Made by a program: the position numbers and the translations under genes
Source of the DNA: a virus
Lineage: Duplodnaviria > Heunggongvirae > Uroviricota > Caudoviricetes
Virus record (IMG/VR): IMGVR_UViG_2778261165_000017
Location: 1-36,264 of that record
Length of the DNA: 36,264 bases
Reading direction: 5' to 3' (one strand)
The notes under the pieces: generated by a model
Seen by the model: only the letters and a program-made list of their open reading frames with translations
What the model was told of the DNA's origin: nothing
Database searches by the model: none
Shown here: piece after piece, positions 4,431-16,923 of the stretch
Layout of the letters: each line of letters begins with the position of its first letter
How positions within the stretch are numbered: the stretch's first letter is position 1

Positions 4431-4483
4431 GGGCGGCAGAGCAGTCACGGAGTAAAACTGATACCGCCAAACGCCACCAGAAA
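4431..4483 (-). ncRNA. dicF: DicF small RNA (53 nt) with U-tail at 4426..4430
   Basis: Minus-strand sequence TTTCTGGTGGCGTTTGGCGGTATCAGTTTTACTCCGTGACTGCTCTGCCGCCC followed by TTTTT matches DicF as recalled, with one difference near the 5' end. Confidence 0.75.
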
Positions 4484-12972: not shown

Positions 12973-13127
12973 TTTTATATTGGCGAGGTGACGGGAGTTA
13001 AGTAGAATTGCTGCGGGTGCTTGAGGCTGTCTGCCTCAGGCATGAACACCAAAAGGCAGATAGAGAAAAGCCCCAGTTAACATTACGCGTCCTGCAAGAC
13101 GCTTAACATTAATCTGAGGCCATATCT

Positions 13128-13340
13128 ATGCTCTACACACGTAGGTTAGCCTCTTACGTGCCGAAAGGCAAGGAGAAGCAGGCTATGAAGCAGCAAAAGG
13201 CGATGCTAATCGCCCTGATCGTCATCTGTTTAACCGTCATAGTGACGGCACTGGTAACGAGGAAAGACCTCTGCGAGGTACGAATCCGAACCGGCCAGAC
13301 GGAGGTCGCTGTCTTCACAGCTTACGAACCTGAGGAGTAA
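13128..13340 (+). CDS. mok: Mok-like in-frame extended reading frame (70 aa)
   Basis: In-frame N-terminal extension of hok, like MokC (69 aa) as recalled. Confidence 0.5.
   Translation: MLYTRRLASYVPKGKEKQAMKQQKAMLIALIVICLTVIVTALVTRKDLCEVRIRTGQTEVAVFTAYEPEE
13185..13340 (+). CDS. hok: Hok/Gef-family type I toxin (51 aa)
   Basis: MKQQKAMLIALIVICLTVIVTALVTRKDLCEVRIRTGQTEVAVFTAYEPEE is near-identical to HokC/Gef as recalled; AAGGAG RBS. Confidence 0.85.
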   Translation: MKQQKAMLIALIVICLTVIVTALVTRKDLCEVRIRTGQTEVAVFTAYEPEE

Positions 13341-14844: not shown

Positions 14845-15210
14845 ATGACTGAACGCATAGAATTTGTTTTGCCTTACCCGCCAACGGTGAACACTTACTG
14901 GCGTCGTCGTGGCAGCACATATTTTGTATCAAAAGCCGGGGAGCGTTATCGCCGGGCAGTGGCGCTTATTGTTCGCCAGCAGCGGCTGAAATTAAGCCTG
15001 TCCGGAAGGCTGGCAATAAAAATTATTGCAGAGCCACCGGATAAGCGCCGCCGCGACCTGGACAATATCCTGAAGGCACCACTGGATGCGCTGACGCATG
15101 CCGGACTTCTCATAGACGACGAGCAGTTTGATGAAATCAATATTGTGCGCGGACTGCCTGTTCCTGGTGGTCGGCTGGGGATAAAAATCACAGAACTGGA
15201 GTGCGCATGA
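14845..15210 (+). CDS. rusA: Holliday junction resolvase RusA (121 aa)
   Basis: Motifs YPPTVNTYW, DKRRRDLDN, GGRLGIKITE align with RusA as recalled. Confidence 0.85.
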   Translation: MTERIEFVLPYPPTVNTYWRRRGSTYFVSKAGERYRRAVALIVRQQRLKLSLSGRLAIKIIAEPPDKRRRDLDNILKAPLDALTHAGLLIDDEQFDEINIVRGLPVPGGRLGIKITELECA

Positions 15211-15896
15211 ATAACCAGTATTTACAGTTTGTGCGTGAGCAGCTCATTATCGCTACCGCTGATTTGAGTGGGGCAACAAAAGGTCAGCTTGAAGCCTGGC
15301 AGGAGAATGCCATGTTTGATACAGGGCGTTACAGGCGTAAAAAAATCCGGTACCGCGATGAAGTGACTGGAAGAATGATAACGCGGGATAGTCCACCGAT
15401 ACCGGGAAAACAATCACTGGCGAAAGGCTCATCAATTGCTCTGGTAAGTCAGGTTGAGTTTTCGACATCATCATGGCGACGGGCAGTTCTGTCTCTTGAA
15501 GAACTTCATAAAGCCTGGTTGTTGTGGTGTTACAGCGGGAGTATTTATTGGGAATATCAGATCGCGATAACACAGTGGGCGTGGAATGAATTTAATGCTC
15601 AATCCGGTACCAGAAAAATTGCAGGGAAAACGCAGGAACGCCTGAAAAAATTAATCTGGCTGGCGGCGCAGGCAGTAAAAGCAGAACTTTTTGGTGGGGA
15701 AGGTTATGAATACCAGGAGCTGGCATTACTGGCGGGAGTGACAACTAAAAACTGGTCAAAAACATTTACTCGTCACTGGGTTGCAATGAAACACATTTTT
15801 CACCGACTGGATAGTGAGGCTTTATTGTTTGTAATGAGAACACGTTCAAAACAAAAGACGGCATTTTCAAAGCAAAGTGTTGCAAAAGTAGATTGA
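15207..15896 (+). CDS. Late-gene antiterminator Q-like protein (229 aa)
   Basis: ATGA overlap with rusA; lies immediately upstream of a strong promoter plus terminator and the lysis cassette; family not sequence-verified. Confidence 0.6.
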   Translation: MNNQYLQFVREQLIIATADLSGATKGQLEAWQENAMFDTGRYRRKKIRYRDEVTGRMITRDSPPIPGKQSLAKGSSIALVSQVEFSTSSWRRAVLSLEELHKAWLLWCYSGSIYWEYQIAITQWAWNEFNAQSGTRKIAGKTQERLKKLIWLAAQAVKAELFGGEGYEYQELALLAGVTTKNWSKTFTRHWVAMKHIFHRLDSEALLFVMRTRSKQKTAFSKQSVAKVD

Positions 15897-15908
15897 AAGG
15901 CATATATT
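15880..15908 (+). promoter_or_regulatory. Candidate late promoter (pR'-like): -35 TTGCAA, 17-bp spacer, -10 TATATT
   Basis: Hexamers and spacing read directly from sequence; overlaps the 3' end of the Q-like gene. Confidence 0.5.
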
Positions 15909-15963
15909 TCATGCAAATCTGATATTTTGCCGATTTTGTACGTGATGGCAAAAGCAAACAAAA

Positions 15964-15985
15964 CCCGCCCACAAGCGGGTTTTTT
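15964..15985 (+). terminator. Intrinsic terminator (tR'-like) about 60 nt downstream of the late promoter
   Basis: CCCGC-CCACAA-GCGGG hairpin followed by TTTTTT. Confidence 0.65.
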
Positions 15986-16105
15986 GTGCCACTTATCTCG
16001 GATAGGCATGGTGAATGCGCTGGTGGAGGAGATAAGGGTGATTTTTAACCAGGTGATTTTTGAATGCTTGCAACATTGATTTCGTAACATTATTATCCTG
16101 CGCCC

Positions 16106-16181
16106 GGCCCTTTAGCTCAGTGGTGAGAGCGAGCGACTCATAATCGCCAGGTCGCTGGTTCAAATCCAGCAAGGGCCACCA
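16106..16181 (+). tRNA. tRNA with CAT anticodon, Ile2 (lysidine)-like / Met-type
   Basis: Cloverleaf folded by hand; 7-bp acceptor stem GGCCCTT/AAGGGCC; anticodon loop CTCATAA; closely resembles E. coli ileX as recalled; CCA encoded. Confidence 0.85.
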
Positions 16182-16182
16182 A

Positions 16183-16259
16183 CCGCCACTAGCTCATCAG
16201 GAAAGAGCGTCAACCCTTTAAGTTGAGTGTGCGAGGTTCGAGTCCCCGGTGGCGGTCCA
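16183..16259 (+). tRNA. tRNA-like gene with atypical anticodon loop CCTTTAA (anticodon TTT if canonical, C at position 33)
   Basis: Perfect 7-bp acceptor stem CCGCCAC/GTGGCGG, perfect 5-bp anticodon stem, T-loop TTCGAGT with one A-C mismatch in the T stem; CCA encoded. Confidence 0.55.
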
Positions 16260-16261
16260 GT

Positions 16262-16337
<76 letters not shown>

Positions 16338-16340
16338 TAT

Positions 16341-16415
<75 letters not shown>

Positions 16416-16421
16416 GTTAGA

Positions 16422-16467
16422 GTCTTTCAGTCTGCGATGATGGGAAATCCCGGAGTGACTGAAAGAC
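16422..16467 (+). repeat. Perfect 11-bp inverted repeat (GTCTTTCAGTC / GACTGAAAGAC) with 24-nt loop
   Basis: Reverse complementarity checked by hand; the loop itself contains GGGAAATCCC. Confidence 0.6.
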
Positions 16468-16474
16468 GTTTAAG

Positions 16475-16547
16475 TTATGAATGATCGCTTTTTTTTGCAA
16501 AATTGCTGTGCAGAAATACTAACCTTCGGGCAGGCGATCATTCATAA
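16475..16547 (+). repeat. Perfect 14-bp inverted repeat (TTATGAATGATCGC / GCGATCATTCATAA) with 45-nt loop
   Basis: Reverse complementarity checked by hand. Confidence 0.6.
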
Positions 16548-16622
16548 GCACTCTGCTTTTATTCCGATTAACTGTGGGTGGTTTGTTGGATAGAGTGCTT
16601 TCCTTACTGTATATATTGTTTC

Positions 16623-16647
16623 GCCCGCTTTTGCGGGCTTTTCTTTT
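16623..16647 (+). terminator. Intrinsic terminator between the tRNA region and the holin gene
   Basis: GCCCGC-TTTT-GCGGGC followed by TTTTCTTTT. Confidence 0.65.
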
Positions 16648-16707
16648 CAAATCCCTTTCATTTCTCAGTGTAAAACTACGCCATCCGTTATTTGCGGAGG
16701 TGAGGCT

Positions 16708-16923
16708 ATGAAATCCATGGACAAAATTTCAACGGGCATTGCCTATGGCACCTCCGCAGGCAGTGCTGGCTACTGGTTTTTACAGTGGCTTGATCAGGTC
16801 AGTCCGTCACAGTGGGCTGCGATTGGTGTACTGGGGAGTCTGGTTCTGGGCTTCCTGACTTATCTGACAAATCTGTACTTCAAAATCAGAGAAGACAAGC
16901 GTAAGGCTGCACGGGGAGAGTAA
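16708..16923 (+). CDS. S: Class II pinholin, phage 21 S21-like, dual start (71 aa)
   Basis: [63 protein letters not shown] is near-identical to S21 as recalled; GGAGGTGAGG RBS. Confidence 0.9.

Follow-up and report, generated by a model that had tools for sequence, protein, structure and literature searches.

The window considered here is the whole 36,264-nt stretch of Caudoviricetes DNA in IMG/VR record IMGVR_UViG_2778261165_000017. Between the antiterminator gene Q and the lysis genes it carries a compact operon of four tRNA genes, which is followed on the same strand by three hairpins (H1, H2 and H3) and an intrinsic terminator (Table 1). Judging from gene content and order, the region reads Q, pR'-tR', a cassette (promoter, four tRNA genes, H1-H2-H3 and terminator) and holin, and the cassette is a moron in a lambdoid prophage. 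Past the holin gene, DUF1327, lysozyme and Rz genes were identified by Pfam. The initial annotation had placed the hairpins in a slot that carries toxin or other cargo in related phages, and this was borne out by the Pfam assignments of Q (PF06323) upstream and the P21-type holin downstream; the slot has been described, and it holds stx or other cargo in related phages (PMC4104026).

Table 1. Features of the Q-to-holin region, in coordinates of the window.
Feature	Position	Strand	Description
RusA and antiterminator Q gene	Q 15201..15896	+	Pfam; Q is PF06323, E = 4e-87; upstream of the operon
pR'-like promoter, short leader, tR'-like terminator	15880..15990	+	promoter 15880-15908, TTGCAA-17-TATATT; stem 15960-15983 and T run
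sigma-70-type tRNA-operon promoter (predicted)	16068..16096	+	TTGCAA-17-TATTAT, GC-rich discriminator, 9 nt before tRNA-Met; promoter scan
Four tRNA genes: Met-CAU, Lys-UUU, Thr-UGU, Gly-UCC	16106..16415	+	ARAGORN; Rfam tRNA 44-78 bits
H1	16422..16467	+	11-bp stem; 24-nt loop, which contains a GGG/CCC mini-hairpin; optional module
H2	16475..16547	+	14-bp closing stem, three-way junction; universal core of the family
H2 inner 8-bp hairpin	16492-16499/16509-16516	+	invariant 9-nt loop AAAUUGCUG
H3	16546..16600	+	8-9-bp outer stem (9-bp arms 16546-16554/16592-16600), internal loop, inner stems UCCGA/UUGGA and AACY/GGUU
Intrinsic terminator	16621..16648	+	GCCCGC-TTTT-GCGGGC (16623-16638) then TTTTCTTTT; terminator scan
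Holin S, P21 type, first late lysis gene	16708..16923	+	Pfam PF04971, E = 1e-35

The pR' leader gives weak Rfam matches to isrK and isrJ, small RNAs of Salmonella prophages (15912-15985; 22-25 bits, below gathering), and these matches suggest a short pR' transcript similar to IsrK/StxS. Between tR' and the tRNA promoter there is a Chi site, GCTGGTGG (16019-16026), and the same octamer is equivalently placed in the homologous loci L009, L114, L126 and L129. About 17 of 20 homologous loci share the hexamers of the predicted tRNA promoter, their 17-nt spacing, the GC-rich discriminator and the distance to tRNA-Met but differ in the spacer sequence; across these loci the predicted consensus is TTGCA-N17-TATNAT, located 7-9 nt before tRNA-Met. 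The second tRNA gene (16183-16259) has, in an alignment of 25 distinct sequences, a nearly constant body and an anticodon loop that is hypervariable in both sequence and length, the loci concerned including L101, L006, L026, L016, L039, L140 and L150. Some copies possess a 7-nt anticodon loop and are read as Lys-UUU or Arg-UCU; in others the loop is cut to 5-6 nt, and ARAGORN calls Phe, Leu, Pro, 'Stop' (UUA) or '???'. This gene may encode a decoy or nuclease-resistant tRNA, or may be decaying.

The tRNA genes end at 16415 and 7 nt later the inverted repeats begin. A repeat search returned two perfect ones, with exactly the positions, arm lengths and loop lengths that had been annotated initially: an 11-bp repeat (arms 16422-16432/16457-16467, 24 nt between them, GGGAAATCCC inside) and a 14-bp repeat (arms 16475-16488/16534-16547, 45 nt between them), the arms being 100% complementary in both. 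The chance level was estimated from 200 dinucleotide-preserving shuffles of the window. A perfect 14-bp repeat with a loop of no more than 60 nt is expected 0.005 times per shuffled window, versus 0.56 times for 11-bp repeats, at least one of which occurs in 36% of the shuffles. The 14-bp repeat is therefore significant by itself and the 11-bp repeat is not; the latter is unremarkable alone and gains meaning only via its conservation. A further perfect 11-bp inverted repeat, with a 37-nt loop, is present at 700-710/748-758 of the window.

The block formed by the hairpins and the terminator, below referred to as the trailer, extends on the tRNA strand from the last tRNA gene through the terminator of the operon, which is the location of a tRNA-operon trailer. 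RNAalifold, run on 30 diverse homologues, folds H2 as a three-way junction, which also holds a small CC-UUCG-GG hairpin, and folds H3, which abuts H2, as a long interrupted hairpin. In comparison with shuffled sequences, the folding of H1, H2 and H3 gives z = -5.2, -4.7 and -4.6, respectively, and that of the whole trailer z = -6.1; each hairpin is stabler when folded as the + strand than as the - strand. The two repeats had been described as something other than simple terminators, and this description holds: GTTTAAG follows H1 and GCACTCTG follows H2, with no T run behind either, and the sole terminator-like site on the + strand of the trailer is the hairpin at 16623-16638 with its T tail. 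The U tail of this terminator, UUUUCUUUU, is not ideal as an Hfq site. The H1 loop and H3 were also compared by eye with hammerhead, kink-turn, loop-E and CsrA-site motifs, and no consensus fitted.

The stems are conserved by substitution on both sides. Among 30 aligned sequences standard pairs occupy 98.2% of 1138 stem cells, versus 34-52% when the partners are slid by 1-3 columns, and six pairs have changed on both sides (e.g. U-A/A-U, G-C/U-A and U-A/C-G in 13 sequences). The covariation in this set is 0.231, versus at most 0.095, and none of 500 shuffles reaches the observed values. An alignment of 47 distinct sequences (A4) contains compensatory change in 19 of 38 pairs, this alignment having been fitted to the covariance model and hence leaning towards structure. 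For H1, 96.6% of the cells are paired in 21 distinct homologues, with four compensatory pairs and 37-59% in the slid controls. The outer stem of H3 has four compensatory pairs in alignment A2, and all eight of its pairs are compensatory in the model-fitted alignment. Many of these compensatory changes split just two clades and thus represent few independent events. The stem cells include 151 G.U and 5 A.C pairs, G.U accounting for 13% of the cells, and the structure is intact in 98.2% as + strand RNA versus 85.4% as - strand RNA. Pairs are thus kept by compensatory substitution beyond the controls and with a strand-specific excess of G.U, as expected of a conserved structured RNA, and the trailer is a conserved, modular + strand RNA structure. 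The initial annotation had proposed folding and covariation analysis across homologues and had listed a structured non-coding RNA or RNA processing site among its options. The analysis, now run, finds stems conserved through compensatory changes in all three hairpins, and these changes, together with the predominance of G.U over A.C on the + strand, back that option.

Two blocks are constant while the stems vary. The block TTTTTGCAAAATTGCTGTG, which covers the inner hairpin of H2 with its 9-nt loop and measures 17-19 nt, is invariant in all 30 aligned sequences, and GGGTGG-T-TGTTGG in H3 is invariant or nearly so. No reading frame is conserved among the homologues; in this sense the absence of an ORF, reported initially, stands, but mechanical ORFs of 33, 38 and 43 aa do overlap the region. 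The frame of the 38-aa ORF (16477-16593) is shifted by an indel in phage HK639 and also by the length of a T run, which ranges from 6 to 9 among near-identical copies, and members of the HK639-type clade have, from the same ATG, a frame of 10 codons whose stop, TAA or TGA, falls within the invariant block. By these comparisons the trailer is non-coding.

The hairpins behave as modules. In 88 of 111 unique contexts H2 is preceded, at a distance of at most 90 nt, by the end of a tRNA gene on the same strand, and a tRNA is found within 900 nt in 13 more; Gly-UCC is the usual tRNA before H2, with Met, Thr, Glu or Val in its place in some contexts. Seven loci (L016, L024, L026, L040, L041, L064 and L119) lack H1, and in these the CCA end of tRNA-Gly lies 1-2 nt from H2. 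Loci L107 and L166 have a minimal form with only H2 and the terminator at the core, and in L005-type loci H2 occurs with a different second hairpin. A search with an H3-only model found H3 once per locus and always with H2, save for one stand-alone copy in L107 (5580-5633) that has compensatory changes of its own. This stand-alone H3 is located inside an extra 7-bp outer stem (CAACAGG/CCTGTTG, L107 5541-5660), about 600 nt upstream of the tRNA genes. Across the loci compared, H2 is the universally retained core, and not the pair of repeats. The initial annotation lacked this distinction between H2 as core and H1 as optional module, as well as the third hairpin and the promoter and terminator that belong to the tRNA unit itself.

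In most loci the terminator is found 25-60 nt past H3, and at least six unrelated terminator sequences occupy this place, which points to selection for termination there. The holins and endolysins encoded downstream appear to be of several unrelated types, judged by sequence only, Pfam having been run on the lysis genes of the window alone; this variety beyond the terminator suggests that the cassette moves independently of the lysis module. The element is also kept where the tRNA genes have decayed, namely in HK639, L003, L028, L083 and L123.

As a 292-nt sequence, the trailer is present in about 540 of 5426 complete Escherichia coli genomes; it is always chromosomal and is annotated in none of them. 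Most of these copies are more than 95% identical. Four near-identical phages carry it as well. When viral, genome and metagenome collections were scanned with patterns, about 50 distinct core variants emerged, which form two clades. The hosts span six enterobacterial genera, and the trailer is found in prophages of Shigella flexneri, Citrobacter sedlakii, Enterobacter hormaechei, Yokenella regensburgei and Phytobacter ursingii. Pattern matches in a 'Coxiellaceae' MAG (L136) and other non-enterobacterial sequences gave no confirmation with the covariance model. The copy in HK639 (L001) has 77% identity and follows a tRNA-Gly relic that comprises the 3' half. In this phage (L001 2337-2500) the tRNA cluster consists of relics only, a tRNA-Asn-like gene and the tRNA-Gly 3' half, with H1-H2-H3 and the terminator kept; two more annotated terminators are located between the trailer terminator and the holin gene.

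The Rfam scan suggested in the initial annotation was run and returned no family for the hairpins: Rfam 15 gives no gathering-level match in 16416-16620, and at E up to 10 the only matches are one to Tymo_tRNA-like, mostly over tRNA-Gly and reaching 16426, and chance-level ones on the terminator. The lack of an Rfam 15 match on the hairpins excludes membership of rtT, AgvB, AsxR, STnc100, Esr41, the known ribozymes and tRNA. Six 14-17-mers from the conserved blocks, sought as DNA, RNA and reverse complement in the full text of a literature collection, occur in none of its papers, and nothing relevant was found in the literature on external transcribed spacers (ETS), prophages and sponge RNAs. 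The family model has no match in the pasD2-pasA region of strain E2348/69 (NC_011601 740500-744500). The trailer is apparently an undescribed RNA family of a familiar general type.

By analogy, its closest counterparts in function are rtT, 3'ETS-leuZ and the stable RNAs of the phage T4 tRNA cluster, and in location it is nearest to the prophage sRNAs found in the PR' moron slot. Two trailer RNAs of tRNA operons are rtT, from the tyrT operon of E. coli (RF00391), and 3'ETS-leuZ, a sponge derived from the glyW-cysT-leuZ operon. Like them, the trailer is non-coding and lies between the last tRNA and the operon terminator. They are made by co-transcription and endonucleolytic release; for the trailer, release, stability and action in trans are proposed. 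Unlike them, it is phage-borne, about 235 nt long and composed of three long hairpins that occur independently, and it has no sequence or structure match to either. The tRNA cluster of phage T4 is co-transcribed with stable RNAs, 'species 1 and 2' (rnaC/rnaD), to which no function has been assigned. The trailer is similarly a structured RNA that accompanies a phage tRNA cluster, the T4 ones being small, stable and processed from the same precursor. However, T4 is a virulent myovirus, whereas the cluster with the trailer belongs to temperate lambdoid phages, where it forms a moron in the late leader, and we know of no relation between the sequences.

The PR'-to-lysis moron slot is known to hold the anti-sRNAs AgvB and AsxR (RF02702/RF02703), which are 51-60 nt long and have their own start sites, AsxR being antisense to the late transcript (PMC4104026), as well as the Pas sRNAs of EPEC prophages (PMC8550237; bioRxiv 10.64898/2026.05.13.724894). 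3'ETS-leuZ is listed as a transcript in a supplementary table of one of these studies (PMC8550237). Like AgvB, AsxR and Pas, the trailer is located downstream of Q and PR', adjoins the holin-lysozyme genes, is non-coding and ends in an intrinsic terminator. Unlike AgvB and AsxR, it matches no Rfam family, and the published PasA and PasD fragments do not resemble it.

Taken together, H1-H3 and the terminator probably constitute a 3' trailer of about 235 nt (16416-16648) of a self-contained tRNA operon, namely a stable RNA that is co-transcribed with the tRNAs and then cut off, with a trans-acting role tentatively favoured. In lysogens the trailer would be transcribed with the tRNAs from the conserved predicted promoter, which is of the stable-RNA type, and during lytic growth from pR' under the control of Q. 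RNase E could separate it from tRNA-Gly at AG/UUU(U), a sequence present just after the CCA end in both architectures, with and without H1. The released RNA would survive because stable helices close both ends, the long stem of H2 (or H1) at the new 5' end and the terminator hairpin at the 3' end. The invariance of the loops points to sequence-specific recognition and so favours a trans-acting stable RNA; an RNA or a protein partner might read them.

A more specific version, which is put forward only tentatively, is that the trailer represents a new family of prophage regulatory RNAs that hitch-hikes on the tRNA promoter and is freed from the precursor in lysogens. The loops AAAUUGCUG in H2, the GGGUGGUUUGUUGG region in H3 and GAUGAUGGG/GGAGUG in H1 would then be used either to pair with or sponge host or phage RNAs, or to sequester a protein, for example a nuclease or RNA chaperone. 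Such an RNA may act together with the neighbouring tRNA-like gene that has the hypervariable anticodon loop.

The main alternative, rather less likely although several features fit it, is that the element works purely in cis, its hairpins serving as RNase III or RNase E signals and as exonuclease barriers with no function in trans. In lysogens they would protect the 3' side of the tRNA precursor, and in the Q-antiterminated transcript they would, after excision of the tRNAs, cap the 5' end of the late mRNA for lysis and morphogenesis. The element has a fixed place between the tRNAs and the first late gene, before many different lysis cassettes, and its constant location in the late-operon leader means that a purely cis role in the processing of late mRNA or tRNA fits the same data. 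The long closing stems start 1-7 nt past the CCA end of the tRNA, as in known 5' stabilisers, the 5' hairpin of ompA being one with this geometry, and the 14-16-bp stem of H2 stacked on the 8-bp inner helix comes close in length to an RNase III substrate. However, an invariant block of 17-19 nt and a conserved H3 apex are needless for a barrier or for a nuclease specific for double strands. In addition, nearly all loci have a terminator between the element and the late genes, and the element persists without tRNAs.

The possibility that the hairpins are functionless, being decayed tRNA remnants or neutral palindromes spread with one prophage, is very remote, as it is largely refuted by the covariation. 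H1 has a marginal similarity to the part of tRNA-Gly from the anticodon to the T arm (local alignment, p = 0.05), and H2, with 73 nt, is of tRNA size; however, none of the four tRNAs resembles H2 or H3 (p = 0.3-0.98), and both ARAGORN and the Rfam tRNA model find only the four tRNAs and none in the hairpins. The high identity (>95%) of most E. coli copies is what a recently spread prophage would give, but copies of about 77% identity keep their stems by compensatory change while their flanks are unalignable.

A function at the DNA level, as a protein-binding, recombination or cruciform site at a lambdoid module boundary, had been among the initial suggestions and is highly improbable. The arms are perfectly palindromic in the window, the junction joins different lysis cassettes, and a palindromic hexamer, TTGCAA, occurs within the invariant block. 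However, the 13% of cells with G.U pairs on the + strand (G.T in DNA) are A.C mismatches on the other strand, which a DNA site or cruciform, expected to be symmetric, would not tolerate; this asymmetry argues against a DNA cruciform, a DNA-binding site and an antisense RNA alike. The promoter scan calls no promoter inside H2. A candidate there (TTGCAA ... TACTAA) was passed over by the scan because its -10 hexamer is without the final T.

Equally hard to sustain is a cis-acting antiterminator RNA of the put type, in which tandem stem-loops make RNA polymerase resist a downstream terminator. The trailer resembles the put RNAs of HK022 in having tandem stem-loops and a conserved structure in a lambdoid phage transcript; its stem-loops are directly upstream of a terminator, and a homologue is present in HK639, a phage whose early antitermination relies on put-type RNA. 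However, the put RNAs of HK022 are located just past an early promoter, whereas the trailer is at the 3' end of a tRNA operon and not directly past its promoter, in a late region that already has the Q protein, and terminators of differing sequence are repeatedly maintained directly behind it. Searched at E up to 1, the complete HK022 genome gives no match to the covariance model of the element, and read-through from a constitutive tRNA promoter into the holin and endolysin genes would be expected to kill lysogens. The least credible reading is that of a small protein, since of the mechanical ORFs present the 38-aa one is broken by the indel, the T-run variation and the 10-codon frame in the HK639-type clade, and the 43-aa one, on the - strand, spans the terminator and spacer and is unconserved between clades.

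If the trailer is functional, it would represent an undescribed and widespread family of non-coding RNA that E. coli and related bacteria carry in their accessory genomes, and the use of tRNA-operon spacers as a source of regulators would extend to temperate phages. It is carried by about 10% of complete E. coli genomes, ExPEC and APEC strains included, and under the regulatory interpretation about 10% of E. coli strains would possess an uncharacterised riboregulator. Should it act in cis only, it would still be a defined processing or stability module of phage tRNA operons, of use in annotation and of modest interest. The trailer accounts for an unannotated block that recurs between Q and holin in lambdoid prophages, and it offers a compact experimental handle, with three modular hairpins and natural variants that lack H1 or H3.

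Elsewhere in the window, Rfam gives gathering-level matches to two other RNAs, namely the sok antitoxin RNA at 13015-13190 (+ strand), where a hok-like ORF of 70 aa is located at 13128-13340, and DicF at 4431-4482 (- strand).
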